From: a plasmid
Reading direction: 5' to 3' (one strand)
Length of the DNA stretch: 64,000 nt
Sequence record: CP113993.1
Shown: in pieces, positions 1 to 37,900 of the stretch
Numbering within the stretch: position 1 is the stretch's first letter
Layout of the letters: each line of letters opens with the position of its first letter
The notes under the pieces: model-generated
Database searches by the model: none
Seen by the model: only the letters and a program-made list of their open reading frames with translations
What the model was told of the DNA's origin: nothing
Made by a program: the position numbers and the translations under genes

Positions 1-2
1 GG

Positions 3-7634: not shown

Positions 7635-7658
7635 TCTGCTGCTCCTCCTTATTTTGTT

Positions 7659-8198: not shown

Positions 8199-8242
8199 AG
8201 GTTCACGTTTGCACGGAAATAAAGACCAGTTATCTCATTATC

Positions 8243-17398: not shown

Positions 17399-17881
17399 TT
17401 AAATCTTGTAGAACAATGTATTTGGCGCAATGGGAGACTGAACAAAGCCAAAGTATTCATAGAATGTTTTCGCCTGTTCATCAATAGCATGAACCATGAT
17501 CGCTTTAATACCCACCTGGTCTGCCAGGTTAGATACCCGTGTTACAGCATCATTAAGCAGCCATTTTCCAAAACTATGCCCTTGAGTACACTCATCAACA
17601 GCAAGACGTCCCAGCAAAACAACCGGAACAGGATCGGGCATATTCTGGCGTAAACTGCGACCTAAACTGGCATGACTTACAGACCCCGTCGCAATAGAGT
17701 AATATCCCACTACTCGCTTTGTGCCTTCAGGGCAGATAACAAATGTACGGGAGGCATTGAGGTATTGGTTCTTCATCGCTCTGCGGCGAAGCCAGTCACT
17801 GAGCACATCATTCCCGCAATCAAACTGTTGAAGATAGTGTTCCTCGTTTAGCAACTCCGGTGCAGTAACACTTATTTCCAT
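17399..17881 (-). CDS. GNAT-family acetyltransferase toxin (TacT/AtaT/KacT-like)
   Basis: 160 aa with a GNAT fold (...RLAVDECTQGHSFGKWLL...). It overlaps by a few nt a DUF1778-type RHH partner upstream, the typical TacAT organisation. Confidence 0.7.
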   Translation of the reverse strand: MEISVTAPELLNEEHYLQQFDCGNDVLSDWLRRRAMKNQYLNASRTFVICPEGTKRVVGYYSIATGSVSHASLGRSLRQNMPDPVPVVLLGRLAVDECTQGHSFGKWLLNDAVTRVSNLADQVGIKAIMVHAIDEQAKTFYEYFGFVQSPIAPNTLFYKI

Positions 17882-18156
17882 TCAGGTTTCACATCCATCA
17901 GGCGCTGACGACCTTCAGTATTCTGTACAGGAGCTTCAAGTTGTTTAATAAAAGCCTGATAGCGGGCATCATCCAGAACAAAAACGCGTTGATCCAGAAT
18001 GATATTCTGGGCCTCGCTCACAGCCTTTTCTATGATGAAGTCGGTACGGTTTTTACTGACCAGGCTCGCTGCATAATCAATCACAGCACGTTCCTCATCA
18101 GTAGCCCGTATATTTATTTGTTTATTACGCACAGATTTGCGGATTGTAGTTTGCAT
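17872..18156 (-). CDS. DUF1778/RHH antitoxin (TacA-like)
   Basis: MQTTIRKSVRNKQINIRATDEERAVIDYAASL... has the type-II antitoxin RHH pattern, and its stop overlaps the toxin start. The ORF track's 18189 start is probably too long. Confidence 0.65.
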   Translation of the reverse strand: MQTTIRKSVRNKQINIRATDEERAVIDYAASLVSKNRTDFIIEKAVSEAQNIILDQRVFVLDDARYQAFIKQLEAPVQNTEGRQRLMDVKPEWK

Positions 18157-19304: not shown

Positions 19305-19586
19305 TCATGCAGATTTAGCTTCCTGGTAATTCCCCCGATAAAATGCCAGTACGCGCTGCATCACCTCGCTGTTCCTGCACTCCTGGCCAATATTATTTTT
19401 GCGTCGGTCACAGGCACACATTCCGTCACCCAATATTTCCTGACGGGATTTAGCCTGCCTGATCAGTTCTTTCTGTTTTGCCTGTTTTGCCTGTTTTGTC
19501 CGCTTGTTATTCCAGGCAGGGAAAGCCTGATCTGACGTAAAAACACCGAGCCCTGGGGCCAGATACATATCACCACAGCTCAGCAA
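19305..19586 (-). CDS. hypothetical protein containing an in-frame (KQA)3 repeat
   Basis: 93-aa ORF. The 9-bp unit ctgttttgc occurs three times at 19473-19499. Confidence 0.25.
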   Translation of the reverse strand: MLSCGDMYLAPGLGVFTSDQAFPAWNNKRTKQAKQAKQKELIRQAKSRQEILGDGMCACDRRKNNIGQECRNSEVMQRVLAFYRGNYQEAKSA

Positions 19587-20317
19587 GCCTGACAGGCAAC
19601 GACGGTGTGTTCCATTATATTCCTGTCACTCTCTGCAGTTGTCCTGTCGTCATGCGCCCGTTTTTATGTACTCACTCAGTTATACACTGTTGTACTTTCT
19701 TCCGATGCTCCGGTGTGTAAGGCACTGCCATTAAATACTTCATCAAAAAATACCCCACAACCTTTGTATCATCCTGTCGCTGTAAGTTGTTTCCAACAAA
19801 CGCAATATTCATGGCTATGTCCCGAAATGTGTTCAGATAGCGCAGGCTTCGGGTTTGGCTCATCCTGCTCTGTAATGCAATGCACCGGGTACGGTTTCCA
19901 TCAAATCCCCCTGTTAAATTTTTTGATATTGTTTCACGTTTTTCCGCCTGCTTTCCCAGCCCAAAATCACCCAGCGACTGCCGTTTATCCGAAAGCGATC
20001 AGTTCCCCCCTCAACGGCCAGTTTTTTCAGTCTGTCGGAATTCAGGTTGGTCAGTATCCACAGCCTTCATCGACGCGGTTTGCCTGTCAACAATCTGGTT
20101 CAGGAAGATGAACTCGTTTTTCGTATCGCGCTGCATACCAACCTCGTCGAGCCCCAGCAGGTCAACATCGCAAAGTCCGGCAGGAATGTTCCCTCGAATT
20201 TGCCCACGTCATGGCAGGCACGCTACCGCACGCCTCCGTACAGCCGTATGGTTACCCTGCGTACACCGGAGGTTTTTGTGGGTTATACGGGTTTTAACGG
20301 GGCGGAGAAGGGGCGGG

Positions 20318-20623
20318 TTAACGTTTCCGGGACTGAGAGGCGATTTTCCGGGCGGTGTGGAGTACCCGCAGGATACGTACATGCTCTTTTTCGGCTACAT
20401 AGACGATGATGAACGGGAAGTGAGGCACCACAAGCTTACGCTGATTCTCCAGCCTCCCGGCCTTTACCCCAGCCAGCGGGTTTTCCTCCAGGATACCCGT
20501 CATGCCCGCCAGACGGTCGTCTGCGGCTATGGCAACCTCATCCCCGGCTTCCCGGTTCAGGTACAGGAAGATGTCTTCCCTGTCCCTCTGTGCGCGCTTT
20601 TCCCATTCAACCCTGACCGTCAC
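20318..20623 (-). CDS. RelE/ParE-family type II toxin
   Basis: 101 aa (...VKAGRLENQRKLVVPHFPFIIVYVAEKEHVRILRVLHTAR...), with a 4-nt overlap with the upstream antitoxin-like ORF. Confidence 0.7.
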   Translation of the reverse strand: MTVRVEWEKRAQRDREDIFLYLNREAGDEVAIAADDRLAGMTGILEENPLAGVKAGRLENQRKLVVPHFPFIIVYVAEKEHVRILRVLHTARKIASQSRKR

Positions 20624-20910
20624 AGCCTGCCCCGCATGGCCTGTTGTTTCAGCGTGTTCATCCTGTTTTCCATTTCATCGTGGCCGATATACTCGCCTTC
20701 ACCGGCATCATAGCGGCTGAATGCCTGAGCTATCTGCTCTTCCAGCCAGTCTTCATGTACGCTGCTCTGATAGCGGCGTTCTTCTTCTGCCAGCTCTTCG
20801 GCACGCTGGCGCATCAGCTCTGTCAGGCTCACCTGCTGACGCTCTGCTGCCTGCATGGCCAGTCGTTTGGTTTCTTCAGCTATCCGGAAGTGGATCGTAC
20901 TGCTCATCAT
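20620..20910 (-). CDS. ParD/RHH-like antitoxin partner (start at one of the internal Met codons)
   Basis: MSSTIHFRIAEETKRLAMQAAERQQVSLTELMRQ... has the RHH-type antitoxin pattern. Confidence 0.55.
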   Translation of the reverse strand: MMSSTIHFRIAEETKRLAMQAAERQQVSLTELMRQRAEELAEEERRYQSSVHEDWLEEQIAQAFSRYDAGEGEYIGHDEMENRMNTLKQQAMRGRL

Positions 20911-21630
20911 TCCCTCCACATGTGGTGTCGTTTGTGTTGTCATTATGAACGGTATATCCCGTTATGTCATCCAGGGTTTCCCGTTCTGCCGGATGTGTGC
21001 TGGCGTGAACCGCCTGAAGCGCCCGGACCGACACCTGCGTATAGATCTGCGTGGACTCCACGCTGGCATGACCCCGCATCGCCTGTATCCACCGCAGATC
21101 TGCACCATTCTCCAGCATCTGTGTCGCCATCGCGTGCCGGAACAGGTGGCAGCTCCCGTGCCCAACCAGGCCGGAGGCTTTCATATAGTGGCTGACGATG
21201 TTGGTGATGCCGTTCGGCCCCACACCCCCTCCACGACGTCCAGCGCCACGAACAGCGCCTTACAGTGCGGATTAACCAGCAACTGCGGTCTTAGCTGATG
21301 CAGATAATGCTGTACCCACCACAGCGCACGCTCACCCACCGGCACCACCCGGTCCTGTTTCCCCTTTCCCTGTACGATAGTCAGGATACGACGGTTCGCA
21401 TCCACGCTGAACACGTCAAGACCCGCCGCCTCACTCCTGCGTACGCCCGTTGACCACAGCAGCTCCATCAGCACCCGGTCACGAATACCCGCAGGCGTGG
21501 TCAGGTCCGGCAGTGCCAGTACCTGCTCCACTTCATCCACGCTAAGGATATACCGTGGCAGGCACTTCTCCAGCCTCGGCAGCTCAAGGTCTGCCGCCGG
21601 GTTGGCCAGTATCAGGTTCTGTCGGGTCAT
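20876..21630 (-). pseudogene. tyrosine recombinase (XerD/ResD-like), split by a frameshift near 21181-21223
   Basis: The C-terminal fragment carries ...HLFRHAMATQMLENGADLRWIQAMRGHASVESTQIYTQV (the R..H..Y catalytic box). The N-terminal fragment (21181-21630) has the core-binding domain. Confidence 0.65.
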
Positions 21631-21852
21631 CCAGTGGAGCCAGACCTGAAGCGGCTGTAAGGCCGTACGCTGGGTCCGGGTGGTCAGCGGGGCACCATTA
21701 CGTTTACGGTACTGGTACAGATGCCGCTGGTGATGCCTCTATACCGGAATCTATTGCAGTCCCCATGTGAACATCCGGTGAAGTCATCTTCACAGGAGTT
21801 TTCAGTCAGTTAGCATTACCGACATCCATTCACCGACTTACCGGAGGAACCG

Positions 21853-22336
21853 ATGTCAAAACACCGATGGTCCATTGAACAGAAAAGGCAGCACGTTGCC
21901 GCCTGGCGCACCAGCGGCCTTACACGCCAGCAATACTGTGAACTCAACGATATCCCCTTCAAATCACTTCGCGAATGGCCGAAGGATGTCGCAAAAGCTG
22001 AACGTCGGGCTAATGACCCCACCATTCTTCCCGTTCAGATTGCGCCAACACTGCAGGCTGATACTCCACCGCCCGTCACAAACGAGCCGGTTACACTCTT
22101 CATCCCCGGCGGGATACGGATGTGCTGTCATCCTTCACAACTGACTGATGTCTTCAGGGCGCTCAAATATGCTGACGCCTGATAATGTTTTCCTCACTGT
22201 TAAACCTGTCGATATGCGGCGCGGCATCGATACGCTGACACAGTATAGACAGGATGAACTCAGGTCGACGTGGCATGAGGGCGCCGCCTTCGTCTTTGTC
22301 AACAATCTATGGTCACCCCCATTTTTGCAATACTGA
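21853..22336 (+). pseudogene. IS66-family accessory ORF remnants (TnpA-like HTH and TnpB-like)
   Basis: MSKHRWSIEQKRQHVAAWRTSGLTRQQYCELNDIP... is IS66 orf1-like. ...PDNVFLTVKPVDMRRGIDTL... is IS66 orf2-like and truncated. No IS66 transposase follows. Confidence 0.45.
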
Positions 22337-22585
22337 TTTTTGATTAATGGTGGGCTTGCTTCAATCTATCCGGCGTCTGTATGGGCAAGAATGCCCGCGC
22401 CACGATGAGTTCCGCGCCTGATGCACCTGAAAAAGCCCTCGGCTTCAGTGAGCCATTTGTTGTCTAAGGTTTCTCATCAGGCCGATATGCCGTTCATGTC
22501 ATCAATAATCAGTCTTCGCAAAACCAGATGGGTAACTACTGTTTAACTACTTAATAATCAATCTGTTGATTCAGCGCGACATATA

Positions 22586-23611
22586 TCAGGCCTGATATGC
22601 ATTGTGATTCGTCGTGATTGCCCATGCTATTCGCGCCAGTTTGTTTGCCAGAGCGCAGGCAACCACATTCGAATGCTTCTTGCTGAGTTGCTCTCTGACC
22701 CATTCGGCCAGTCTGCCCTGCTGATGTTCCAGTCGCATCATGAACGAGCGGGCACACTGAACCAGTAAACGGCGGAGGTTTTTGTCGCCCCGTTTGCTGA
22801 TACCCAGCAGAGTCGATTTACCTCCTGTACTGTATTGCCGGGGGACAAGCCCTGTGGAAGCAGCAAAAAGCCCTGTGGAAGCAGCAAAATCCCTGCTGCA
22901 TGAAAATTGTTTGCCATCACCGAGCTGTGATGAAAGCAGACTGGCCGTAATCGGCCCAACACCGGGTATTGTCATGATGCGTTGAGTTGCATCATCAGTT
23001 TTGATTGACTGGTTTAATTCTGATTCCAGTTCTGTTATTTGCTCAACAAGGTAAAGATAGTGAGCGTGTAATTTCATCAGCAAACGGCTCAGATATTCAG
23101 GTATTTCGTGTTCCACGAGCACCAGGGGCAGCCGCTTAATGACAGTATCGCCTACTGGCAGACTGATACCAAATTCCAGCAAAAAACCGTTGATCTGGTT
23201 GGTCGTTTTCACCTTGTCTCTGATAAGTGATTCTCTGGCCCGATGCAGCGCTCGCATCGCCTGCTGAACTTCGGTTCTGGGCTGGACAAACCACATTGAT
23301 GGTCGCGATGCGGCTTCGCATATTGCCTCAGCGTCGACAAAATCATTTTTATTACTTTTGACGAACGGACGCACGAATTGCGAAGAGATAAGTTTTGCTT
23401 CATGACCGATATCACTGATACGCCGTGCCATAAAATGCGCACCGGCACAGGCTTCCATAACAACAACAGTGGACGGACATGTCGCCAGAAACTGCATTAG
23501 ATTAGTGCGCGTGAATTTCTTACGCTGAAGCGCCTTTCCGGACTTGTCCTGACAGTGAAGATGAAAAGAGTGTTTACCGAGAGCGATACCAATAAGCGCA
23601 ACGTTTTCCAT
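22586..23611 (-). CDS. IS110-family transposase (apparently intact)
   Basis: 341 aa. The N-terminus IGIALGKHSFHLHCQD is the DEDD RuvC-like start, and the C-terminus ...FAASTGLVPRQYSTGGKSTLLGISKRGDKNLRRLL is the IS110 signature. It carries an in-frame 21-bp tandem duplication. Confidence 0.8.
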   Translation of the reverse strand: MENVALIGIALGKHSFHLHCQDKSGKALQRKKFTRTNLMQFLATCPSTVVVMEACAGAHFMARRISDIGHEAKLISSQFVRPFVKSNKNDFVDAEAICEAASRPSMWFVQPRTEVQQAMRALHRARESLIRDKVKTTNQINGFLLEFGISLPVGDTVIKRLPLVLVEHEIPEYLSRLLMKLHAHYLYLVEQITELESELNQSIKTDDATQRIMTIPGVGPITASLLSSQLGDGKQFSCSRDFAASTGLFAASTGLVPRQYSTGGKSTLLGISKRGDKNLRRLLVQCARSFMMRLEHQQGRLAEWVREQLSKKHSNVVACALANKLARIAWAITTNHNAYQA

Positions 23612-23694: not shown

Positions 23695-23970
23695 ATGGGG
23701 TATGACATAACCAAGGACGTCTGTAGTCATGGATTCCGGGCTATGGCATGCAGTGCGTTGATTGAATCAGGTTTGTGGTCCCGCGATGCTGTTGAAAGGC
23801 AGATGAGTCATCAGGAGCGTAACGGTGTACGAGCAGCTTATATCCATAAAGCCGAACACTTGGAAGAGCGGCGACTGATGCTACAGTGGTGGGCGGATTT
23901 TCTGGATGCAAACTCGAAAGAAAGTACCAGCCCCTTTGAGTATGCAAAGATTAACAATCCATTAAAATAG
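23695..23970 (+). pseudogene. phage P4-type tyrosine integrase C-terminal fragment
   Basis: ...HGFRAMACSALIESGLWSRDAVERQMSHQERNGVRAAYIHKAEHLEERRLMLQWWADFLD matches the C-terminal catalytic region (R-H-Y box) of P4/CP4-57-type integrases. The N-terminus is absent, with an IS110 element adjacent. Confidence 0.65.
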
Positions 23971-24293: not shown

Positions 24294-26603
24294 ATGGAGT
24301 TATGGATATTTATAATAGCTATTTATTTGATTTATATTCTTTTTTTCAAAAAGAAGAAACCTAAGTCCGCGGGCTCTTATACTTCCGCTCCTGTGAAAGC
24401 ACCACCTAAAGAATGGCTTGCTAACAACAAAAAAAATCAGGCGGTAATGCACAACGATGACAGCGAAGATGACAATCTGGCTACGTTTACACTAAGTGGC
24501 GGACGGAATGTCGAATACAGCATAACAGCCACTCAACGCCAGAATCTCTCAAAAAATACCGGTGCTTTGGCTCGCTGGATTTTACCGGGAGAGGTGATCA
24601 CAGTCGGTGGGGTAGAGGTTACCGGTGCCCACTTCTATCTTGGACAGCGTATGAAACCTGCCGGGCATAACTCAGGTGGTTATTATGATGATAGTAGCGA
24701 GGCATCGCTAATTGACGACACGCTTAAGATATACCCCACACCTTACATTTACGAAGATAGTTCATTAGGGTATTGGCCCAGTTTTTCCTCACTTTCACCT
24801 GAAGCACGTGGTGCGTACCTGAGTTGGCTTGCCAGCGACAGATGTGACACTTCTTGCCCAATTGGTTACGTTTTTATTTATCTGTATGGTCTGGAAAGAC
24901 GGGCGCTTGTTGACAGCAGGGACAACAATATATCTGACGATGAGTTCTATTCTCTTTTCAAAGAGATCTGCCGTCTCAGATCGGTTTTCAATGAAAACCG
25001 ATCTTTCCGGAACTACTCGTCCCAGCTACTTGAAGCGATGTCCATTCTTCGCCCGAACGAAAATCTTGCAGCAGCTCTCGTCAATGATTCGGAGTTCAGC
25101 AATAGAATGCAATTCAGGCTAATCCTGGCAAAGACAGTTGAGGCAGGAGCCCCGGTGCCAGCTGATCTGGCTCTGACGTGGGTGACAAACCATACTGAAT
25201 ACTCATTGCGAACCCCTGCCCGCCGTTGCGCGAAAGAATTTGCTGCACTTTTTAAACGGCGTTACACCCTTAAATACGGTGAAGGGATGGTAGTGAAGCC
25301 GAATAAAGCGCGTCTGCGTTTAGATTACACACCTGCAAGTCCCAGTTTGCGAGGTATTCGGCTTCCTGTTCCCGACTTGCCTGATCCAAGTGCATTGAAA
25401 GGCCCTGTTCAGCAGCTTATGACCCTTGCCGATATATGCACAGATGAACTAGATGCTTACAGTCGTTACCTTGGTAGAAAAGGCACTTCAGCAAATGATA
25501 CCGCTGCAATTTTGTTGCTGCCTTCAGAAATCGTTAACGAAAGCGCAGAAAAAATATTAAGTGCATTCAAACGCTGGGCTGATGACGCGATCCTCAGTAA
25601 GGGTGGAGTAGTTTCAGTTGCTGACTACTGGTCACATATGAATGCTACCTGTCCGGCGAAGATCAATAAAAAAGAGGCCGACTTGATGCAGGCCTTTGCA
25701 CAGAAAATGGGGTACTGTCTGGCTCCTGACCCCTATTACCACCACGTAAAGGCAGATGTCGATGGTGTTCTTGTTTTATTCCCTGCAGGAGAAGGTGGAC
25801 GCTTCTCACCTTCTCCTGAATTTATCACAGCTGTATTGACGCTCCGATTAGGTGCGGTAGTCGCCTTGATTGACAATTCTCTCGATCAAGCCGAACAGAA
25901 AGTGCTCGAGAATGCCATCAACAACAATGCCGGCTTCAGCGATGATGAAAAGCGCTCTCTACACGCATATTTAACGTGGCAGCTTCATACCCCGGCGAAC
26001 ATGACGGGAATGAAGAGCCGGATTGAATTACTTGATACTGCGGAAAAATCAGCTGTTGGTAAGGTTATCGTTAGTGTTGCTTGCTCTGATGGCAGAATTA
26101 CGCCTGCCGAAATCAAACAGCTTGAGAAGATTTATACAAGCCTGGGGCTGGATCCCTCATCCGTATCAAGCAATATCCACCAGCATTCCGCAACTGAAAC
26201 TGCTCTCGTTTCATCTGTACCAGCTAATCAGTCGACGGCAGGGTTTACACTGGATGCCAACGTACTTGCCCGCCACGAATCTGCCACTGATGATGTTCGT
26301 AAATTACTGAACTCGATTTTCACTGAAGAAGAACCAGAACAACCAGAAAGCACTCCAGCCTCATTAACCGGGGAAGGGGGCCTTGACCCCGCTCATAGCC
26401 AACTTTATCGCAGGTTGCTGGAGAAAGAACAATGGTCCAGAAAAGAGGCGACAGAGTTATGCAGTAACTGGAACTTGATGCTCGGCGGTGCGCTTGAGGT
26501 GATCAATGATTGGTCCTATGCGGTGGTTGATGCACCAGTGCTGGAAGATACTGATGATCATATTTGGGTTGACCTGGAAATAGCCAAAGAATTAGAGGGT
26601 TAG
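24294..26603 (+). CDS. large TerB-like protein with an N-terminal transmembrane helix (SngA-like), first gene of a 3-gene cassette
   Basis: 769 aa. The N-terminus ELWIFIIAIYLIYILFF is hydrophobic and followed by KKKKPK. The C-terminal block ...NWNLMLGGALEVINDWSYAVVDAPVLEDTDDHIWVDLEIAKELEG resembles, from memory, TerB-C-type ends. It is 4 nt from the next gene. Confidence 0.65.
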   Translation: MELWIFIIAIYLIYILFFKKKKPKSAGSYTSAPVKAPPKEWLANNKKNQAVMHNDDSEDDNLATFTLSGGRNVEYSITATQRQNLSKNTGALARWILPGEVITVGGVEVTGAHFYLGQRMKPAGHNSGGYYDDSSEASLIDDTLKIYPTPYIYEDSSLGYWPSFSSLSPEARGAYLSWLASDRCDTSCPIGYVFIYLYGLERRALVDSRDNNISDDEFYSLFKEICRLRSVFNENRSFRNYSSQLLEAMSILRPNENLAAALVNDSEFSNRMQFRLILAKTVEAGAPVPADLALTWVTNHTEYSLRTPARRCAKEFAALFKRRYTLKYGEGMVVKPNKARLRLDYTPASPSLRGIRLPVPDLPDPSALKGPVQQLMTLADICTDELDAYSRYLGRKGTSANDTAAILLLPSEIVNESAEKILSAFKRWADDAILSKGGVVSVADYWSHMNATCPAKINKKEADLMQAFAQKMGYCLAPDPYYHHVKADVDGVLVLFPAGEGGRFSPSPEFITAVLTLRLGAVVALIDNSLDQAEQKVLENAINNNAGFSDDEKRSLHAYLTWQLHTPANMTGMKSRIELLDTAEKSAVGKVIVSVACSDGRITPAEIKQLEKIYTSLGLDPSSVSSNIHQHSATETALVSSVPANQSTAGFTLDANVLARHESATDDVRKLLNSIFTEEEPEQPESTPASLTGEGGLDPAHSQLYRRLLEKEQWSRKEATELCSNWNLMLGGALEVINDWSYAVVDAPVLEDTDDHIWVDLEIAKELEG

Positions 26604-26606
26604 TGA

Positions 26607-27923
26607 ATGTCTGTAACACGTATAAGAGTGAAAGAGCGCGACGCTATTATTCAGTCACTTAAGTCAGGAGTAACGCCAAGGATAGGGATTCAGCATATCC
26701 AGGTTGGCCGCGTGAATGAGATAACCGCCCTCCATCAGGATATTGAACGGATTGCTGATGGAGGGGCGAGCTTCAGACTTATCATTGGTGAGTACGGTTC
26801 CGGGAAAACGTTCTTTTTAAGTGTTGTGCGGTCTATTGCGTTAGAGAAGAAGTTGGTTGCGGTCAGTGCAGACCTTTCTCCCGACAGACGTATTCACTCA
26901 TCGGGAGGTCATGCTCGTAATCTCTACTCAGAGCTTATGAAAAATATGTCCACCAGAAACAAACCAGATGGCAATGCGTTACTTAGCGTTGTGGAAAGGT
27001 TCGTTACTGAGGCAAGGAAGGAAGCTGATGCGAACGGCTCCCAAGTCTCATCCGTTATTCATAAACGCCTTGCTGCTTTGTCAAATATGGTGGGCGGATA
27101 TGACTTTGCGAAGGTCATTGACGCATTCTGGCGCGGGCACGAGCAGGATAACGAAACCTTAAAATCCAATGCCATTCGCTGGTTGCGGGGCGAATACACC
27201 ACCAAAACTGATGCCCGTAATGATCTCGATGTCCGAACTATTATCTCAGACGCCTCATTCTATGATTCTTTGAAGTTGATTAGCCTTTTTGTCCGTCAGG
27301 CAGGCTATGCCGGACTTTTAGTTAGCCTCGACGAGATGGTGAACCTCTTTAAGTTGAATAATACGCAAGCGAGAACAGCCAACTACGAACAGATCTTGCG
27401 GATCCTGAATGACTGCCTGCAAGGCTCCGCCGAAAATATTGGTTTTATCCTCGGGGGGACGCCAGAGTTTCTTTTCGATCCACGTAAGGGGCTCTACAGC
27501 TATGAGGCGCTCCAGTCGCGTCTGGCAGAAAACCGATTCGCACAGAAAGCAGGCGTGATTGACTACTCGTCTCCCACGCTGCATCTTGCCAGCCTCACTC
27601 CTGAGGAACTGTATATTTTACTGAAAAATCTTCGTCATGTTTATGCTGGTGGAGATCCCGCGAATTATCTGGTGCCAGATGATGCTCTGACCGGGTTTCT
27701 GCATCACTGCAGCAAAACCATCGGAGATGCTTACTTTCGTACTCCCCGCAATACCATAAAAGGTTTTCTGGATATGCTAGCTGTGCTGGAGCAAAACAGA
27801 ATGATGAACTGGCAAGCGCTCATCGAGGGAGTGGCGATTGAAGAAGACAAGCCCAGCGATATGGATGACACCACTGTGGAGGAAAGCGATGACGACGACG
27901 GCCTGGCGAATTTCAGACTATGA
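26607..27923 (+). CDS. P-loop ATPase (BrxD/SngB-like, DUF2791-type)
   Basis: 438 aa with Walker A LIIGEYGSGKTFFLS and Walker-B-like LLVSLDEM, plus an acidic C-terminal tail (EESDDDDG). Its stop overlaps the next start (ATGA). Confidence 0.7.
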   Translation: MSVTRIRVKERDAIIQSLKSGVTPRIGIQHIQVGRVNEITALHQDIERIADGGASFRLIIGEYGSGKTFFLSVVRSIALEKKLVAVSADLSPDRRIHSSGGHARNLYSELMKNMSTRNKPDGNALLSVVERFVTEARKEADANGSQVSSVIHKRLAALSNMVGGYDFAKVIDAFWRGHEQDNETLKSNAIRWLRGEYTTKTDARNDLDVRTIISDASFYDSLKLISLFVRQAGYAGLLVSLDEMVNLFKLNNTQARTANYEQILRILNDCLQGSAENIGFILGGTPEFLFDPRKGLYSYEALQSRLAENRFAQKAGVIDYSSPTLHLASLTPEELYILLKNLRHVYAGGDPANYLVPDDALTGFLHHCSKTIGDAYFRTPRNTIKGFLDMLAVLEQNRMMNWQALIEGVAIEEDKPSDMDDTTVEESDDDDGLANFRL

Positions 27924-30142
27924 GCAGTGCCTACAATAGTCTCGATCCCCGTGTCCGTAAGTGGGTTTATAAGCAGGACTGGTCATCATTAAGGCCCTTG
28001 CAGGAGAGTTCTATTCCGGCAATTTTAGCCCGCGATCGTGATGTACTAATTAGTGCAGGTACAGCAGCGGGTAAAACAGAAGCTTTCTTTCTTCCTGCCT
28101 GTTCGGCGGTTGCAGATCTCACCGGTGGATTTGGCATTATCTATATCAGCCCGTTGAAGGCATTGATTAACGATCAGCACCGTCGTCTCGAGAGTCTTGG
28201 TGAAGCCCTGGAAATGCAAGTGACGCCCTGGCACGGGGATGTACCACAAAGCAAAAAAAAGAAAGCACGGACAAACCCGTCTGGCATCTTACTTATCACA
28301 CCTGAATCACTTGAGTCTTTGCTCATAAACTCATTGGGTTGGCTCAAACAGGCGTTTTCTTCAGTGGCATACATTGTTATTGATGAGTTCCACACTTTTA
28401 TTGGCTCAGAGCGTGGTATACAGCTGCTTTCTCTGCTTAATAGAATTGACCATGTGCTAGGACGCCAGTTAAATCCAATTCCCCGTGTCGCGTTGAGTGC
28501 CACGCTGGGAGAACTGGAAAAAGTGCCAGAACTATTGCGCCCGGATAAGAGATTACCTTGTGAAACGGTAACAGACAGTAATAGCACAGCCACACTACAG
28601 GTTCAGGTTAAAGGTTATCTTGAGCGGGAGCCCGAAAAAGGAGAAGAGCTCCAGAGCTCTGCCGAACAGCTCGTCTGCGCGGATATTTTCAGGCTCTGCC
28701 GTGGCGATTCCCACCTGGTCTTTGCTAACAGTCGAAAGCGTACTGAAAGCATAGCGGCAACACTGAGCGACATGTGTGAGGCAAATGTCGTTCCTAATGA
28801 ATTCTTTCCTCATCATGGTTCCCTGGCCAGGGAGTTACGTGAGACGCTTGAAGCCCGACTGCAGAAAGGGAATTTGCCCACAACCGCTGTTTGTACAATG
28901 ACGCTAGAGCTGGGTATTGATATTGGTAAGGTGCAGTCGGTCATACAAGTTACACCTCCGCATTCTGTTTCCAGTCTGCGTCAACGTATGGGACGTTCAG
29001 GGCGGCGCGATTCCCCAGCGGTACTGAGAATGTTAATTACTGAACCTGAACTTACCGCAACCAGCAGCATTGTGGATCATTTACGTCTGCAGTTGGTACA
29101 GGCGATGGCAATGATCAGGTTGATGATCTCTAAACGCTGGTTCGAGCCTGCAGATGTCCGGCAGAAACATTACTCCACGCTGCTACACCAGATCCTTGCT
29201 ATTACTGCGCAATGGGGCGGAGTTCGTGCCGATCAGCTCTGGTCACAACTTTGCCAGACAGGTCCGTTCCGGAATGTCGATATAAATGACTTCAAAAGTC
29301 TGCTTAAACATATGGGGATATGTGGCCTGCTTACTCAACTTGCCAGCGGTGAAATAGTTGTCGGGGCTGAGGGGGAGAAGCTGACTAATCACTACACGTT
29401 TTATGCCGTATTCAATACACCTGAGGAGTTTCGAATCGTTACAGGAAACCGAACTCTTGGCACAGTGCCTGTAGACTCCCCACTTTTGCCTGAGCAGCAC
29501 ATCATCTTCGGCGGACGGCGCTGGAAAGTGACAGAGATCGAGGTTGAAAAAAAGGTTATCTATGTTGAGGCGACTAAAGGCGGACAGCCGCCACTATTCA
29601 GAGGTAGCGGGATGTCTGTTCATGATGTTGTTCGCCAGGAGATGCTCGCTATCTATAGGGAAAATGATTACCGTATCGCGGTAGGCAGCAAGAGAGTCGA
29701 TTATGCTGATGCTGCTGCCAGAAGCCTCTTTGCGGAAGGCAGTAACAACTTCCAACGCTACAATCTACAAAATGACTGTTTTATTGCCAGCGGTCAGAAC
29801 TGCTACGTGATCCCGTGGATGGGGGATAAAATTGTCAATACAATTACGTCCCTGCTTATACGTTGCGGCTTTAAAGCCAGTTCATTTGCAGGTGCGATAG
29901 AGGTAGAGGATTCAAACGTTGCCTCTGTTCAGCGTGCACTTAAGAAAATGCTATTGTCAGGGTTACCTTCAGAGTTTGAACTTGCTGCAGTTGTTCCTGA
30001 CAAGTATCTGGATAAATATGACGAGTATTTACCAGAGTCTTTGCTTGCGAAAGGGTATGGGGCAAAGGCGTATGATGTAGAAGGAACGTGCATCTGGCTG
30101 CAGAAACACCTTCAGTCGACTGGATATGTAGTCAGGGTATAA
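27920..30142 (+). CDS. DEAD/DEAH-box superfamily-2 helicase (Lhr-like, SngC-like)
   Basis: 740 aa with motif I AGTAAGKTEAF, motif II VIDEFHTF, motif III SATLG and motif VI QRMGRSGRR. It has a roughly 250-aa C-terminal extension. Confidence 0.8.
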   Translation: MSSAYNSLDPRVRKWVYKQDWSSLRPLQESSIPAILARDRDVLISAGTAAGKTEAFFLPACSAVADLTGGFGIIYISPLKALINDQHRRLESLGEALEMQVTPWHGDVPQSKKKKARTNPSGILLITPESLESLLINSLGWLKQAFSSVAYIVIDEFHTFIGSERGIQLLSLLNRIDHVLGRQLNPIPRVALSATLGELEKVPELLRPDKRLPCETVTDSNSTATLQVQVKGYLEREPEKGEELQSSAEQLVCADIFRLCRGDSHLVFANSRKRTESIAATLSDMCEANVVPNEFFPHHGSLARELRETLEARLQKGNLPTTAVCTMTLELGIDIGKVQSVIQVTPPHSVSSLRQRMGRSGRRDSPAVLRMLITEPELTATSSIVDHLRLQLVQAMAMIRLMISKRWFEPADVRQKHYSTLLHQILAITAQWGGVRADQLWSQLCQTGPFRNVDINDFKSLLKHMGICGLLTQLASGEIVVGAEGEKLTNHYTFYAVFNTPEEFRIVTGNRTLGTVPVDSPLLPEQHIIFGGRRWKVTEIEVEKKVIYVEATKGGQPPLFRGSGMSVHDVVRQEMLAIYRENDYRIAVGSKRVDYADAAARSLFAEGSNNFQRYNLQNDCFIASGQNCYVIPWMGDKIVNTITSLLIRCGFKASSFAGAIEVEDSNVASVQRALKKMLLSGLPSEFELAAVVPDKYLDKYDEYLPESLLAKGYGAKAYDVEGTCIWLQKHLQSTGYVVRV

Positions 30143-30170
30143 ATGACTTATTTATACCCTGATTTTTTTA
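30134..30170 (+). terminator. strong rho-independent terminator after the helicase gene
   Basis: 10-bp stem gggtataaat/atttataccc with loop gactt, followed by tgattttttta. Confidence 0.6.
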
Positions 30171-30440
30171 CTTCCCGGTGGACTTACTTGGCTTTAGTCC
30201 CGGAGTGTTGCCAGGAGTATCTTTATTATCTCGTCGGCGTTGATCCGGTTTTCCTGTCGATTTAGCAATTGGTTTTGGACCAGGTTTAAGACCCATGATA
30301 GTTATCCTTCAGAGATGTAAGAGGAAAACCCTCAGCATTGGTATATTAGATACTGAGAAATTTTTCAATGGGAGTGATCAACTGTATTAGCTCAGACCTG
30401 ATCTGACAGTTACCGGTTATTTATACAGGTATCTGTCAGA

Positions 30441-31052
30441 TTACATCTGGCTTAAATTTTTCTCAGCCCAGATGCGCTTTCCATCAAGTAACGTTTCCAT
30501 CGGCGTCCGGCCGCAGCACATTTTCCCCTGATGGGTTCGCTCATTGTTATAGTGAGCCAGCCATTCATCAAGATCGGATTGTAATGTATCAAGATCTCCA
30601 TATAACTTTTTGCGGAACGTCACCTGATAAAACTCGTTCAGTATCGTTTTGCGGAACCGCTCGCCGATCCCGTTGGTCTGAGGGGACATTGCCTTCGTTT
30701 TCGTGTGTTCGATGTCATTTATCGCCAGATAAAGCTGATAATCATGCAGCTCCACTTTACCGCAATACTCTGTGCCCCTGTCTGTCAGTATCCTCAGCAT
30801 CGGCAGGCCCTGAGACTCATAAAACGGAAGGACACTATCATTCAGTAAATCAGCCGCTGTAATCGGCGTTTTGGTAACATAGAGCTTGCAGTGAGCCACC
30901 TTCGAGTACGTATCAACGAACATCTGCTGATAGATTCGCCCGACGCCTTTCAGGTTGCCCACGTAGAACGTGTCCTGTGACCCCAGATATCCCGGATGAG
31001 CGGTTTCAATCTCACCACAGGCTTCATCATCACTGGCTTTACGCTCCGGCAT
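30441..31052 (-). pseudogene. IS3-family transposase OrfB (DDE integrase core) C-terminal fragment
   Basis: ...ILTDRGTEYCG... and ...SPQTNGIGERFRKTILNE...YNNERTHQG are IS3/retroviral-integrase-type motifs. No orfA or N-terminal part is present. Confidence 0.7.
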
Positions 31053-31645: not shown

Positions 31646-31978
31646 TCAGCTCAGAATGGCTTCCAGTCGGGCCAGCACTTCATTTACGACAGCTTCGGGT
31701 ATACGTTCCAGACGCTTACCATTCCGGGCACCCATATCAATCGTTCTGGGCTGGTCGCAGCGAATAACACCCGTTGTTTTTGTTCCCGCGCCGTCCAGGG
31801 AGACGGTAAAACCGGCTGTGCGGGCAAAGTCTCCGCCGCTGGTGACGGGAACGACAACGGGTAACCGGGTGAACTTATTAAATGATGCCGGAGAAACGAT
31901 AAGTACCGGACGTTTTCCGCTTTGTTCATGTCCGGCTGTAGGATCCAGTGAGACGAGCCAGATTTCCCCTCTGTCCAT
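31646..31978 (-). CDS. pemK: PemK/Kid (MazF-family) endoribonuclease toxin
   Basis: 110 aa: MDRGEIWLVSLDPTAGHEQSGKRPVLIVSPASFNKFTRLPVVVPVTSGG... is near-identical in pattern to R100/R1 Kid/PemK. Confidence 0.9.
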   Translation of the reverse strand: MDRGEIWLVSLDPTAGHEQSGKRPVLIVSPASFNKFTRLPVVVPVTSGGDFARTAGFTVSLDGAGTKTTGVIRCDQPRTIDMGARNGKRLERIPEAVVNEVLARLEAILS

Positions 31979-32236
31979 TTACAGGATCTCCTTACCCACT
32001 GCAGGCGCATCCATCCATTCCCTATCCTCATCGCTCATTTCGGCGTGCGGATCGCACTGTGCCAGCAGTTCCTCAAGCGAATAACGGGGCCGTTTCTGGG
32101 GTTCAATAATCAGGCAGCCATTATCAATGGTCATTCCCACTTCGCTGTCTGTCGACAGAGCCAGCGTTTTCAACACGGCGGGAGGAACCGCCAGCATGAC
32201 GGATCCGCCAACCTTTTTCAGACGAGTGGTATACAT
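31979..32236 (-). CDS. pemI: PemI/Kis antitoxin
   Basis: MYTTRLKKVGGSVMLAVPPAVLKTLALSTDSEVGMTIDNGCLIIEPQKRPRYSLEELLAQCDPHAEMSDEDREWMDAPAVGKEIL aligns with Kis/PemI. Its stop abuts the pemK start. The ORF-track N-terminal extension to 32410 was ignored. Confidence 0.85.
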   Translation of the reverse strand: MYTTRLKKVGGSVMLAVPPAVLKTLALSTDSEVGMTIDNGCLIIEPQKRPRYSLEELLAQCDPHAEMSDEDREWMDAPAVGKEIL

Positions 32237-32846: not shown

Positions 32847-33932
32847 GTGAATCCCCCTTTACTGCGTTCCTATAATGCCGTTATCAAACATACGTTATCC
32901 CAAGCAAAAAAATCCAGAACAACGAAACACATTGCCGGTTTTTGTCAGTTACAGGGGCCCACGGGCAGTGGAAAAACTAGCGCTCTCTACCGTTCTGGCT
33001 TCGCCGATAACGTCCCTCCGGCGTTGGAGACAATAAAAAAATCAGACTCTCAGGCCATTCTGGTTACCCATCGCTGGAATATACTCCACGACATTTACGA
33101 AAAAACAGGTTCGCATGAAGACAGTAATGGAAAACCATTTAACGTTAGTGTGCTTTATGCGCAGGATGAACAAATTGTTTCTGCAATCGAGGTTACGCCA
33201 CTACCTCATGAGAAAGATATTTCCGCAGATTCACTCCCGGATCCCTTTAATTCCATCAACGAACTTGAGGGAAAAAACTTATTTGTCGACCCAGATATTG
33301 CAGACAAACTGCGTAAGAATTGCAGGAATATCCTGTATATCAATAAATTATTGAAAGGATACCCGGCACATTTACGTGCAGCTATCGCCAGTGAAAAAGA
33401 GGCGTTAATAAAATCATGTGCGGCAGTTGAGATATCGTTAATTCAAAATATCAAATTGCTGGAAAAAGAAGCCAGGAAGCAAAAAGAAAAATATGGTGAA
33501 GAACATGAACTCTTGCAGGCCGCCAAGCAACGAGTTGATGACTTCCGTCGTCATGCCTGGGTCAGACGCATTCTGCCCGCCATCGCTTGGCGCGACGAAA
33601 AACAACACCTGCTGATTATGACAACCCAAAAGCTCGTTTCATCATTTTACGATGGGCGGCGCAAAGTACGAATGTCCAGCAAAGAGCTGCGCAATTATGT
33701 CATTTTTATTGATGAATTTGATTATCAGGCTGAGGTACTACAGGAATATCTGGCGCAAGCTCAATGGGTTCAGGAACCGCCTGAATGCTTGGGGCAGTTA
33801 CTCGAGGGGGGACGCAGATTACTGCAACGAATGCAGTATGTTGAAACAGCACCTGCCCCGATGATCCGTGAACGTCTTGGGACATTTCTTAACAAACTGG
33901 ATGACGCCTTAAAAGGAAAAAAATTGATTTAA
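32847..33932 (+). CDS. P-loop NTPase (Walker A GPTGSGKTS, DExD-like IFIDEFDYQ), N-terminal part of a probably disrupted larger gene
   Basis: 361 aa and low GC. It ends in an A7 tract, and the -1 frame continues open into the next ORF. Confidence 0.5.
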   Translation: MNPPLLRSYNAVIKHTLSQAKKSRTTKHIAGFCQLQGPTGSGKTSALYRSGFADNVPPALETIKKSDSQAILVTHRWNILHDIYEKTGSHEDSNGKPFNVSVLYAQDEQIVSAIEVTPLPHEKDISADSLPDPFNSINELEGKNLFVDPDIADKLRKNCRNILYINKLLKGYPAHLRAAIASEKEALIKSCAAVEISLIQNIKLLEKEARKQKEKYGEEHELLQAAKQRVDDFRRHAWVRRILPAIAWRDEKQHLLIMTTQKLVSSFYDGRRKVRMSSKELRNYVIFIDEFDYQAEVLQEYLAQAQWVQEPPECLGQLLEGGRRLLQRMQYVETAPAPMIRERLGTFLNKLDDALKGKKLI

Positions 33933-34042
33933 CTCATGCCAGATCGCTAGTAATTCCTCTGCAAAGATATCTGGATAATAAACCCTTCGGTGAACATTAT
34001 TTATTTCGCTCCGATCAACTGGTAACCAGTGAGCGCCTTATC

Positions 34043-34549
34043 ATGCGACAGGCTGAACATGGCTACGAAATTATCAGACCAGATTCCTCATTTCAGGATA
34101 ACGATCAGGCTATCGACATCAGTGATTTTTTGCGCCTGATGGAAAAGTTTATTCGAAAGTTCAGTCTGATGTTAACGGACCTGACAGCCAGCGAAGATGA
34201 AACGTATGAATACATCAAAAAGTTAACCCGACTTCTGTTCGACCCGGTTAATGACTACAGACCGTCATATTATGGTTCAACCCTGCCAAATATGTCCCGG
34301 TTTTTGTTACCACGTACCGATCTGCCTGAACTGCGGGAACTAAGAAAAAGTAATATTTTGCCCAATACACATGCCAGTATTTTTGGGTTAACTAACTGGT
34401 TGCTGAAACAAAATGTTGTGGATACCGATATCGATCCATTACGAATACAGATCAAGCGTGCGTTCTTGCCAACAACAGCAGAAGGTTTACTACTGTCACT
34501 AGCCAGCCGTAATCTCGTTTTTGCACTGTCGTGCCACATCATATATTGA
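34043..34549 (+). CDS. ORF continuing the NTPase reading frame after a -1 shift (middle part), unknown function
   Basis: Frame 2 is open from 33905, upstream of the annotated ATG and overlapping the end of the previous ORF. It has no motifs. Confidence 0.35.
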   Translation: MRQAEHGYEIIRPDSSFQDNDQAIDISDFLRLMEKFIRKFSLMLTDLTASEDETYEYIKKLTRLLFDPVNDYRPSYYGSTLPNMSRFLLPRTDLPELRELRKSNILPNTHASIFGLTNWLLKQNVVDTDIDPLRIQIKRAFLPTTAEGLLLSLASRNLVFALSCHIIY

Positions 34550-35708
34550 AAGAGCCTGCAACCACTTTGATGTCCGGTGGATAAACTCAGCCTTACGCTA
34601 TATTGCAGAAGCACGTAACCCTACAGTTACGGAAAGCTTTCTCGGAACTACTTTTGAAAACCGACCTGATTCCTGGTTTAAAGAACCGATGCCCTACGTT
34701 CAGACCGATGATGACCTTCAGTTACAAAATACCGCGATTGAAGAAATCAATCGCAGCAAGGAAAGCATCAGAAAGACACAACTGAATACTGAGATCCATG
34801 ATTTTAATAGAACAAAGAACAGCCCGCATTCAGCCGATCTTCTCGCTTCTCTGCCCCCCGATTTTTTCCAGAATGATGATGAACCTTCAACAGATTTCGA
34901 ATCAGAATATCGCCAGAATATTCTACTTAAACTGCTTGATGTGCTGGATCTAGCAGGAAAAAGGCCTCAGCACCGAGGGCATCTGGCTTTTGTTAATTCC
35001 ATATCTTATTTAAGAAAATGGCTAACCGCTGCAATAGCGACACAAAGCAGAGATTGCCTCACATGGTTAAAGCTGGATCCGCCTTTATCCGACAATCTTC
35101 TGCTGAAGAATTTTACTGATGTATTTATCCCGTTGACTATACATAACGAGCCCGCACTAATCTGTCTGTTAACCGCAGAATGTCAGAAAAGAAAGGGCTT
35201 CCGTGATGCCTATCAGGCTGCATTTGCTTCCCGACGTATTGTTATTGTGCTGACACAAACTGCCTCTGCCACCAACGGTATAAATCTGGATTTCAGCCTG
35301 CCTGAATCCGGCAAAAATATGGATTTGACCTGTTTATATTTACTGGAATCACGGCATTTTTACTTTTCCGCTTTCCAGACCATTGCAGATAGCAATGATG
35401 ATATGGCACATGCAGGCTTCCAGTTACGCAATCTGGAAAAACTACTACGAGCAGGGGAAATTTCACGTAAACAGCATCAGCGCTTCATCCTGCCACTGAT
35501 GTTGAACAGGAAGAACGAAATCTCCCGGTTAAACGGAGAGTATAAGAGAACCAGCGATTATATAAAAAATACGGCAGCCAATGTTCAACAGCAGGTTGGT
35601 CGTATTGAGAGAGCCTGGTGTGAAGTACCCAACGCTGAGATTCACCTTGATGCTGAACTAGCAAAAGACCTGTCCCGCTTTGCTTCATTACCTATCTATA
35701 CCCAATAA
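34521..35708 (+). CDS. ORF (395 aa, TTG start in the track), probable C-terminal part of the same disrupted gene; unknown function
   Basis: Same frame as 32847-33932 and open from 34503. It ends exactly where the IS630-family element begins. Confidence 0.35.
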   Translation: MHCRATSYIERACNHFDVRWINSALRYIAEARNPTVTESFLGTTFENRPDSWFKEPMPYVQTDDDLQLQNTAIEEINRSKESIRKTQLNTEIHDFNRTKNSPHSADLLASLPPDFFQNDDEPSTDFESEYRQNILLKLLDVLDLAGKRPQHRGHLAFVNSISYLRKWLTAAIATQSRDCLTWLKLDPPLSDNLLLKNFTDVFIPLTIHNEPALICLLTAECQKRKGFRDAYQAAFASRRIVIVLTQTASATNGINLDFSLPESGKNMDLTCLYLLESRHFYFSAFQTIADSNDDMAHAGFQLRNLEKLLRAGEISRKQHQRFILPLMLNRKNEISRLNGEYKRTSDYIKNTAANVQQQVGRIERAWCEVPNAEIHLDAELAKDLSRFASLPIYTQ

Positions 35709-35711: not shown

Positions 35712-36775
35712 TCAAGATGCAGATTTCAGCACCTGAAAGTGATCATTAATTCGGGATGACAGAGAACCTGCTATATCCGGCAGCGTCTGGTTAAAAAACT
35801 CAGATATTGCGTCCCTGAATTCCTTCGTACTACTGAAGTAACGATTATTCCGCGCATGTTCGTTCATTAACTTCCACATTCGCTCTATCGGATTCAGGTT
35901 CGGACTGTAAGGTGGAAGATAATGTAGCCTGATATTTACCACCTCCGCCCAGTCTTTCACTAACTGTGAACGGTGATAACCTGCGCCATCCAGAATAACG
36001 TGAATTTTCTGGTTGTAATCAGGATAAACCTTTCGTATCTCATTGAAAAAACGGGATACGTTATATTCATTAATCGTTTTATATTCGCAGATTAGCGGGT
36101 ATTCCGGGGTCTTCAGATTCAGCGCCCCCATGATATTCAGCCGCGTACGACTGCCTGTTGTTTTTACTGCTTTTTTTCTGGCCTTTGCATATCCAGCCGT
36201 AGCTGATTTTTAGTGGCCTGAGTTGGATGGACTCCATCAATAAAAAGAACCGGTTCATCACCCACGGTTTCTTTCAGTTCCTCATAATATTCAATAAATT
36301 GTCTTTGTTTCTCTTCACTGAACTTATGGGGGACGCCTGACGGCTTTTTGTAAGTGAAGCCGTTACGATGCAGCCACTTGTTCATGCCCGGAACGCTGAA
36401 AACGATGTTCCATGTCCGGGCAACAAACGCAATAACATCGCGGGCATGGTGAAACAAATTATCGGTTAACTGACTGATTAAAAAGGCTGTTTGTTCAGCA
36501 CTGAGTTTACTGTCTGAGCCGCCGTTTTCGGGCTTCAGCTTCCCTTTGTTCAGAAACTCGCTGATATGGTGGTCAACGGTCGTCTGATGCAGGCGCAAAG
36601 CCTGAGCAATCATGGCAGAACTCCAGCCTTCGGAGGCCAGAAGAATGGCTTTAATACGATCCCTGACTCGCCCGTCACGACTGGAATCGTGAAGGCGCTC
36701 AAGTTCAGCTTTTTGTTGGTCAGTGATGAATATTTTCATGGTGAGCAGCATGATCTCCTGTTGCCGAAAAATCAA
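35712..36775 (-). mobile_element. IS630 (Tc1/mariner)-family insertion sequence with a two-ORF transposase joined at an A_AAA_AAG slippery heptamer
   Basis: ORF1 (36164-36775) has an HTH N-terminus and ends ...QRPEKKQ* at the heptamer A AAA AAG. ORF2 (35712-36131) carries DDE-region motifs (...ILDGAGYHRS...YLPPYSPNLNPIERMW...). Confidence 0.75.
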
Positions 36776-37281
36776 GCATCTTCAATGATCACGGGTATAT
36801 TATTGTAAATATGTGAGGAACTCATAACAATCTCACCCTGCCTGTTCATATACCCCCCGTCAGCACCCACCAGACCTGAAATACTGATTAACTGTTCAAT
36901 ATCAAATACGGGGGCTGGTTTTATAAAAACCAGTTCGGTGTAGGTATGTTTATCCTGCCAGAATAGTCTGACCTGATAATGAAGCATATACTTTATATCA
37001 GAAGAAATTACCCCCATTTTTTCTAAAGCGGTAATATCATAAGTCTGAATTTTCTTACTTTCTTCTGTTACCGGCCAGCTGAATTGCGCTACACTGCCTG
37101 CTATGTATGACAGTTGTTTGGCAATCAGATTCGCTGTTGTAAATTCACGCTCCTGATGGAGATAATAAACCCCGCCCAGAACCCCTAGCACAAACAGAAT
37201 AATAACAAAAGCCACTTCTATTAATGTGAATGCCCGTTGAGACTGCTTTTTTTTACTGAGGTGATTCATCTGCCACACCAT
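36772..37281 (-). CDS. type IV pilin-like protein (prepilin; BfpI/PilV-like minor pilin)
   Basis: KKQSQRAFTLIEVAFVIILFVLGVL is a class-III prepilin leader with Glu at +5. The -1 position is Ala rather than Gly. Confidence 0.55.
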   Translation of the reverse strand: MVWQMNHLSKKKQSQRAFTLIEVAFVIILFVLGVLGGVYYLHQEREFTTANLIAKQLSYIAGSVAQFSWPVTEESKKIQTYDITALEKMGVISSDIKYMLHYQVRLFWQDKHTYTELVFIKPAPVFDIEQLISISGLVGADGGYMNRQGEIVMSSSHIYNNIPVIIEDA

Positions 37282-37336
37282 GTTTTATTTTCTGCCGCAC
37301 AGTGGTATCACGACTCCTTCCGGGGGATAGTAGTTT

Positions 37337-37900
37337 TCAGGATATATTTTTATGAAACAATTTCACATACCTCGCCTTAACCTTCTTGATATATCGTTTT
37401 TTCAAGCGAAGTGTACTGGAGTGATAACGCCCCACGCCTTCCCATAAATCACCATTTTCAAGAATAATGGAGCGCTTAAGGATCCAGGTACCGACCTGAA
37501 TATTAAAACAGTCATCATTCTTTAGAACCTGATAGGCCCTGTCACTATCAGAGTCAAAAAAAACTTTGCTGACCAAAGATAACCAGGCACCGGTATTGAT
37601 CTGCATTATGCCCAGATCTTCTGTATTATTTTTATTTGCCACCGCCAGACCATGCCGTCCCCCCTCTACAGAAATGATACTGGTAATAATTTCTGCAGGA
37701 ATATGATTTACCGCGGCCGCCTGAATGAGGCATATGTAAACAGGGATCAGACCAGAAACAAACATGCCATAAATCCTAACGCAAGTGCCGGCCCCATTGG
37801 TGAATACCGCATTCCTTTTAACCGCAGCGGTAGCGCATAGGAAATAAACGACAGCGAGGTAATAAGTAAAAACAGATGTAACATTTCCAGACCTAACCAT
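37337..37900 (-). CDS. lytic transglycosylase (SLT domain; BfpH/PilT-like)
   Basis: ...SIISVEGGRHGL...EDLGIMQINTGAW...AYQV... contains the SLT E-S / GLMQ / AY motifs. The true start is probably internal, since the track ORF overlaps the peptidase gene. Confidence 0.6.
   Translation of the reverse strand: MVRSGNVTSVFTYYLAVVYFLCATAAVKRNAVFTNGAGTCVRIYGMFVSGLIPVYICLIQAAAVNHIPAEIITSIISVEGGRHGLAVANKNNTEDLGIMQINTGAWLSLVSKVFFDSDSDRAYQVLKNDDCFNIQVGTWILKRSIILENGDLWEGVGRYHSSTLRLKKRYIKKVKARYVKLFHKNIS

Follow-up and report, generated by a model that had tools for sequence, protein, structure and literature searches.

Is the three-gene operon found on a pESI-type plasmid of Salmonella a relative of the anti-phage system Shango, or is it Shango itself? 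The question is raised by a 64,000-nucleotide (nt) stretch of plasmid DNA (sequence record CP113993.1; this whole stretch is the window referred to below), in which an earlier note, made from the letters alone, had recognised three consecutive genes as a Shango-like candidate. The answer favoured here, to which we give a probability of ca. 85%, is that these genes form an intact Shango operon, nearly identical to its ortholog in Escherichia coli KTE113, and that this operon is apparently standard on pESI-like plasmids and was acquired as an island-type module.

The three genes are adjacent and co-oriented on the plus strand, in the order TerB protein, ATPase and helicase. The first, sngA (24294-26603), encodes a TerB-family protein of 769 amino acids (aa); it is followed by sngB (26607-27923), encoding a BrxC/BrxD-family P-loop ATPase of 438 aa, and by sngC (27920-30142), whose 740-aa product is a Lhr-like superfamily 2 (SF2) helicase, all three being assigned by PADLOC and Pfam. 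The list of open reading frames (ORFs) gives exactly the three same-strand genes and lengths that had been proposed. The 4-nt ATGA overlap is also present at the sngB-sngC junction, but the space between sngA and sngB, first given as 4 nt, is in fact of 3 nt (the junction reads TAG-TGA-ATG). The tight coupling and the order of the three genes are directly observed. The strong terminator announced downstream of sngC was found as an intrinsic terminator (30130-30171, plus strand) made of a 16-bp stem and a 3-nt loop (30130-30164) followed by seven T; the hairpin has a minimum free energy of -19.1 kcal/mol, and alignment indicates that it is kept in the Shango copies of E. coli and Klebsiella.

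Profile searches assigned each protein to Shango, as the earlier note had suggested, with the PADLOC Sng models scoring well above those of the related Brx proteins. SngA matched its model with an E-value of 1.1e-101 and 340 bits (residues 41-768 on positions 12-524 of a 528-position profile). SngB matched its own over the full length (E 1.6e-185, 615 bits) versus only E 2.5e-43 and 147 bits for BrxD, and the full-length match of SngC (E 2.4e-278, 924 bits) compares with E 4.6e-115 and 384 bits for BrxHI. The Pfam domains were also those expected, namely TerB_N (aa 98-309), TerB (aa 519-624) and TerB_C (aa 644-768) in SngA, all above cutoffs, BrxC_BrxD (PF10923, E 1.2e-149), which we take to be the former DUF2791, in SngB, and DEAD plus Helicase_C in SngC. 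Past its helicase core, SngC showed merely a weak match to the Lhr winged helix, and the DUF1998 domain that had been anticipated there gave no match even at E<=10.

The Shango system validated by Millman et al. is that of E. coli KTE113 (SG206), with SngA of 769, SngB of 438 and SngC of 732 aa, and the cloned trio protects E. coli from phage on its own (Millman et al. 2022, 10.1101/2022.05.11.491447). Over the first 399 aa of each protein, as printed in the supplement of that study, the proteins of the window are 96.5% (SngA), 98.2% (SngB) and 97.5% (SngC) identical to those of KTE113; with one full-length E. coli chromosomal copy the corresponding values are 94.5%, 97.7% and 96.7%. The two systems share the gene set and its order, the lengths of SngA and SngB and a homologous upstream leader. 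They differ in SngC, which is of 740 instead of 732 aa because of a TAG-to-TCG change, and in location, since one lies on a pESI megaplasmid of Salmonella and the other on an E. coli chromosome. Because of the PADLOC and Pfam assignments and of the ca. 97% identity to the KTE113 proteins, the operon of the window is, judged from its sequence, an intact copy of the type Shango rather than a merely Shango-like one.

Two further copies help to situate this operon. The Shango of Pseudomonas aeruginosa PA14 (cDHS1), which has a 10-100-fold anti-phage activity (Johnson et al. 2023, PMC10250203), displays the same trio of TerB-like protein, ATPase and DEAD-DEAH helicase but belongs to a distant genus, where it lies in a core defence hotspot of the chromosome. 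Closer to the situation found here, a Klebsiella pneumoniae conjugative plasmid (pIncF of strain BR21, NZ_CP018886.1) carries the same module with its terminator at 84% nt identity (SngA 81.9%, SngB 96.1%, SngC 89.1%); unlike the pESI copy, it adjoins the lac operon and the IncFII repA and has no integrase stub. Shango has moreover been reported in a 2026 preprint on IncFIB/IncFII plasmids of K. pneumoniae ST307. The novelty claimed in the earlier note for an IncF-plasmid context was thus overstated, since the operon is an ortholog almost identical to the type example and Klebsiella IncFIB/IncFII copies are abundant and already reported in that preprint. The system itself has been described and tested, and it brings no new system, architecture or mechanism.

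The sequence motifs proposed for SngB and SngC were all located, on the plus strand. In SngB, these are the Walker A GEYGSGKT (aa 61-68, nt 26787-26810, with the lysine at K67), a Walker-B-like LLVSLDEM (aa 237-244, nt 27315-27338) and an acidic tail (aa 412-438, nt 27840-27920). SngC displays motif I AGTAAGKT (aa 46-53, nt 28055-28078, K52), DEFH (aa 155-158, nt 28382-28393), SAT (aa 193-195, nt 28496-28504) and motif VI QRMGRSGRR (aa 355-363, nt 28982-29008). All ATPase and helicase motifs, as well as the three ORFs, are intact. Values of dN/dS relative to the E. coli and Klebsiella copies range from 0.12 to 0.19 for sngA, from 0.035 to 0.06 for sngB and from 0.07 to 0.11 for sngC, and these low ratios (0.035-0.19) point to purifying selection acting on all three genes.

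A 6.3-kb segment containing the operon is 100% identical to plasmid pN55391 and to more than 100 other pESI-like plasmids of 250-340 kb from Salmonella enterica serovar Infantis. Typing of pN55391 revealed an IncFIB replicon, a MOBP relaxase and MPF_I transfer genes. The former label of IncF plasmid therefore holds for the replicon but not for the transfer genes, and the molecule is a pESI-type megaplasmid rather than an F plasmid of the classical kind. Shango is present at 99% identity or more in 120 PLSDB records, and the pESI fae fimbrial block at the same level in 104; since the two counts match, Shango is apparently a regular component of pESI-like plasmids. More broadly, a self-contained three-gene unit including the TerB gene recurs in E. 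coli, Klebsiella and many Enterobacterales. Among the 5,426 complete E. coli genomes, 443 contain homologs with ca. 95-97% identity, and the 84%-identical copy is found in 471 Klebsiella plasmid records, of which the one example opened (pIncF of BR21) is IncFIB/IncFII. On mobile islands and plasmids Shango is accompanied by other defence genes (NACHT, SIR2, GIY-YIG). No Shango was found in deposited phage genomes, so that carriage by a sequenced phage is not supported, and a literature search for Shango together with pESI or S. Infantis returned nothing relevant.

The borders of the operon provide indications on its origin. Upstream of sngA lies the C-terminal stub of a P4-type tyrosine integrase (23695-23970, plus strand; 91 codons), which matches positions 122-170 of the 172-position Pfam Phage_integrase profile and is 68% identical to the C-terminus of P4 Int. 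A pheV (tRNA-Phe) island of E. coli has, directly upstream of Shango, a pseudogene stub of an integrase that is 84.8% identical in nt to that of pESI. On the other side, a conserved downstream segment (30143-30382, no strand assigned) marks the right end of the shared module by homology to the Klebsiella and E. coli copies: two E. coli chromosomes and the Klebsiella plasmid show 90-96% identity to it over ca. 233 nt past the stop codon, after which homology ends. The presence of the stub in the pheV island and the shared endpoint near 30382 argue that the P4-type stub, sngABC and the following ca. 240 bp are a module captured from an integrative island, which is now placed between an IS110 element and an IS3 fragment. 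Searches for attachment (att) sites or RNA elements around the cassette gave no Rfam match, no tRNA and no meaningful flanking repeat.

A second integrase fragment, N-terminal this time, was detected at 21181-21630 on the minus strand (positions 3-99 of 172 in Pfam Phage_integrase). It lies within a GC-rich patch (19500-22500, 0.55-0.59) and is separated from the P4-type stub by IS110. The occurrence of two distinct integrase fragments with IS110 in between suggests several layers of island decay.

How Shango acts can only be approached from the proteins themselves; the earlier note had called the mechanism unknown, and the literature searched indeed holds no mechanistic study of the system. 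The first 66 nt of sngA (24294-24359, plus strand) encode a hydrophobic helix followed by KKKK (MELWIFIIAIYLIYILFFKKKK), recognised by hydropathy, by the AlphaFold2 (AF2) model and by conservation. Its 17-mer has a Kyte-Doolittle mean of 2.4, the maximum of the protein, residues 3-18 are helical in the model, and M1, W4, F17 and K19-21 each show a conservation of at least 90% among 38 homologs. For such a helix with flanking lysines, the positive-inside rule predicts a membrane anchor, most of the protein being cytoplasmic, and we regard this topology as probable for SngA. The AF2 model of SngA (mean predicted local distance difference test [pLDDT] score of 70) displays disordered linkers at residues 19-95 and 635-694. 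Its TerB_N and TerB regions are helical, and the H-E-H-H-E-E arrangement at its C-terminus corresponds to a winged-helix-like unit within TerB_C (ca. aa 699-760, nt 26388-26573, plus strand). Apart from the transmembrane-like helix, the TerB fold and the winged-helix matches, no enzyme fold was recognised, and a sequence search of the PDB returned no match for SngA or for SngB.

SngA is also the most divergent of the three proteins when compared to the Klebsiella copy (81.9% identity, versus 96.1% for SngB and 89.1% for SngC). The idea that it is a fast-evolving sensor was not pressed, the variable stretches falling in low-pLDDT linkers and not in a folded domain.

As for SngC, its nearest relatives of solved structure are Lhr (5v9x, 7lhl) and MrfA (6znp). 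It shares with Lhr and MrfA/YprA repair helicases the SF2 core and the weak Lhr winged-helix match, but only its first ca. 290-370 residues align with them and the DUF1998/MrfA zinc domain is missing; the PDB profile search likewise reached helicase cores only. Other authors have grouped SngC with BrxHI, DruE and DpdJ in a defence-specific SF2 clade (Hachiman paper). The AF2 model of SngC was unusable (mean pLDDT 47), its alignment being shallow, with 33 homologs all at least 86% identical.

From these elements a working model can be drawn, in which the N-terminal helix of SngA would hold this protein at the inner membrane and so position the TerB and winged-helix domains beneath it, at the site of phage DNA entry or early replication. 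Once infection is sensed, SngA, together with the BrxD-like ATPase SngB, may recruit or license SngC, and this Lhr-like helicase, probably a 3'-to-5' translocase, would unwind or strip replication or recombination intermediates of the phage DNA. The expected outcome would be a lower phage yield, not cell death caused by a dedicated toxin. A non-toxin model is favoured because Pfam and PADLOC recognised no nuclease, protease, NADase or pore-forming domain in SngA, SngB or SngC, and a reduced yield is in keeping with the modest size of the protection, 10-100-fold, that has been reported (PMC10250203). A membrane-tethered SngA also agrees with the membrane-surveillance idea of Millman et al. (10.1101/2022.05.11.491447).

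Several points weigh against the view that the pESI operon is an intact and working Shango. The comparison with KTE113 is confined to the printed residues, and phage protection is documented in the literature only for the KTE113 and PA14 systems. The 100% conservation among pESI isolates is uninformative on selection in Salmonella because pESI is recent and clonal. Among the homologs listed, nearly all SngC proteins are of 732 aa versus 740 in pESI, and the promoter scan revealed nothing convincing as a sigma-70 promoter ahead of sngA, its only site being within the sngA coding start. The C-terminal 270 residues of SngC (ca. 470-740) are unclassified, since the model derived from the shallow alignment is too poor, and they could hide an effector domain. 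Finally, the mechanism as a whole, with SngA sensing, SngB assisting and SngC acting on phage DNA, is tentative, and we would not be surprised to see it replaced.

Some of these points would fit a pESI copy that is functionally impaired, either because the loss of the sngC stop extends the gene into the terminator hairpin or because the native promoter was lost near IS110, and that is passively carried by a clonal plasmid. The extension is of eight codons, STGYVVRV (30116-30139, plus strand), and results from the change of the ancestral TAG stop to TCG; over 30113-30142, the reading frame thus enters the terminator stem and ends at a new TAA stop that sits in the hairpin loop, whereas alignment gives 731-732 aa for the E. 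coli and Klebsiella copies. The unusual length of SngC, the lack of a promoter-like site upstream of sngA in the scan and the clonality of the plasmid speak for such an impairment. Against it, the three ORFs are intact with every catalytic motif, the extension is short and placed after the conserved C-terminus, and a conserved stretch of ca. 140-200 bp located 5' of sngA, shared with the E. coli and Klebsiella copies, is still present in pESI. Impairment is therefore considered unlikely, and an intact operon is retained.

A different question is whether, on pESI, Shango has been selected for competition between plasmids or other mobile genetic elements (MGEs), such as incoming plasmids and prophages, or for plasmid maintenance, and not for defence against lytic phages. 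In favour of this view, 514 of the 630 plasmid records having a Shango homolog are typed as conjugative, the cassette is set among addiction modules (GNAT/DUF1778, RelE/DinJ and PemIK), genomic islands of E. coli harbour Shango along with ApsAB, an antiplasmid system (ApsAB paper), and the reported anti-phage effect is of modest size. Yet the literature searched contains no report of a Shango acting on plasmids, the experimental phenotypes being only anti-phage, and the E. coli copies are mostly chromosomal (1043 of 1065 places), which makes this role improbable as the one selected when compared to phage defence.

A housekeeping or stress function is far less credible, whether tellurite or metal resistance through TerB or DNA repair of the Lhr/MrfA type. 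TerB domains were first described from tellurite-resistance operons, according to the work that Millman et al. 2022 cite for it, and the solved helicases nearest to SngC are repair enzymes. However, no other ter-named gene is annotated within a 30-kb stretch of pN55391 around the cassette, where the TerB-family domains of SngA are all that recalls such an operon, and SngC scores far under the cutoffs of the NCBIfam repair-helicase equivalogs, Lhr and ligase-associated models included (230 for a cutoff of 850 with TIGR04121, 190 for 849 with PRK13767 and 103 for 1496 with PRK09751). In addition, the sng genes ride mobile islands and plasmids beside defence genes, and a ca. 97% identical copy restricts phages. 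A tellurite-resistance operon, for which terZ/A/C/D/E are not annotated nearby, and a repair helicase were both rejected.

The last alternative, a non-autonomous leftover of a type 2 (Pgl-like) bacteriophage exclusion (BREX) system made of BrxD and BrxHI without the core genes, can be discarded as next to impossible: SngB and SngC do match BrxD and BrxHI, with a homologous PF10923 ATPase and Lhr-like helicase, but the Sng models fit at full length and score three to four times the Brx models, the NCBIfam BrxD equivalog NF033438 reaches 144.7 bits for a cutoff of 350, methyltransferase, PglZ, PglW and PglY are missing with a TerB protein instead, no gene of the size of PglX, PglZ, PglW or PglY is adjacent since at ca. 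14-40 kb of the window the sng genes are the only ORFs above 400 aa among insertion sequence (IS) elements and toxin-antitoxin genes, and the TerB-containing trio recurs as a self-contained module that protects alone when cloned. The reading kept is thus that of an intact type Shango.

The elements that surround the operon correspond to those first proposed, the integrase stub, IS110, the IS3 fragment and pemIK all being found by Pfam, RefSeq or comparison to P4 Int. On the left is an IS110-family transposase (22586-23611, minus strand; Pfam DEDD_Tnp_IS110 and Transposase_20, RefSeq). On the right, a fragment of an IS3-family transposase (30441-31052, minus strand; Pfam rve_3 and rve) is followed by the neighbour pair pemK (31646-31978) and pemI (31979-32236), both on the minus strand (PemK_toxin, E 8e-30, and MazE_antitoxin; RefSeq). 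The IS110 transposase, the IS3 fragment and pemK/pemI are outside the Shango system. As to base composition, the GC content of the cassette (0.479) is, as had been claimed, below that of the fae block (0.570) and of the 19.5-22.5 kb region (0.547), but the cassette is not a GC outlier relative to the plasmid as a whole because the window has a mean of 0.491 and its 36-64 kb part a value of 0.470.

Other features of the window deserve mention. The fae genes form the K88/F4-like fimbrial operon of pESI (faeG, faeH, usher and chaperone) and occupy positions 1-9000, with a GC of 0.57 that clearly exceeds that of the remainder of the window. An intact 402-aa TnpB, an IS200/IS605-type RNA-guided endonuclease, is encoded at 11107-12315 (minus strand; Cas12f-like matches with E 1e-87, RefSeq TnpB), and no omega-RNA or other Rfam family reached the gathering score anywhere in the window. 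Closer to Shango, an addiction and regulatory run comprises hha (16132-16341), a GNAT toxin with its DUF1778 antitoxin (17399-18156) and a RelE/ParE plus DinJ pair (20318-20907); with pemIK on the far side, three toxin-antitoxin pairs occur within 16 kb.

Beyond pemIK, the plus strand carries three genes annotated as hypothetical (32847-35708; 361, 168 and ca. 340 aa) with a GC of 0.436, the minimum of the neighbourhood. The 361-aa product has weak P-loop/STAND-type matches (PADLOC PbeC 1e-5, DdmD 1e-3 and Pfam nSTAND fragments) and the two others gave no match; this trio might represent a module, so far uncharacterised, for defence or MGE conflict beside Shango. Finally, at 35712-38503 (minus strand), an IS630 transposase abuts three genes whose annotations are type II secretion system protein, lytic transglycosylase and A24 prepilin peptidase; we interpret these three as a thin-pilus cluster of the pil type, in line with the MPF_I typing.

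Multidrug-resistant S. Infantis owes its worldwide spread to the pESI plasmid, and phages against this serovar are in development for use in poultry. The occurrence of an intact Shango on this globally spreading plasmid appears to be unreported and merits an annotation note; routine defence-system annotation should flag the operon, since the PADLOC Sng models match all three proteins outright. For the study of Shango itself, pESI offers a convenient natural context. For the serovar, a conjugative plasmid on which an intact Shango neighbours fimbrial and resistance genes could disseminate partial resistance to phages along with antimicrobial resistance. That the pESI Shango is a transmissible phage-resistance determinant that adds to the ecological success of the emergent serovar in poultry and makes phage biocontrol less effective is a possible, though doubtful, extension of these data, in which the spectrum of the system might also be altered by the SngC extension or by the plasmid context, for instance towards incoming plasmids or prophages.

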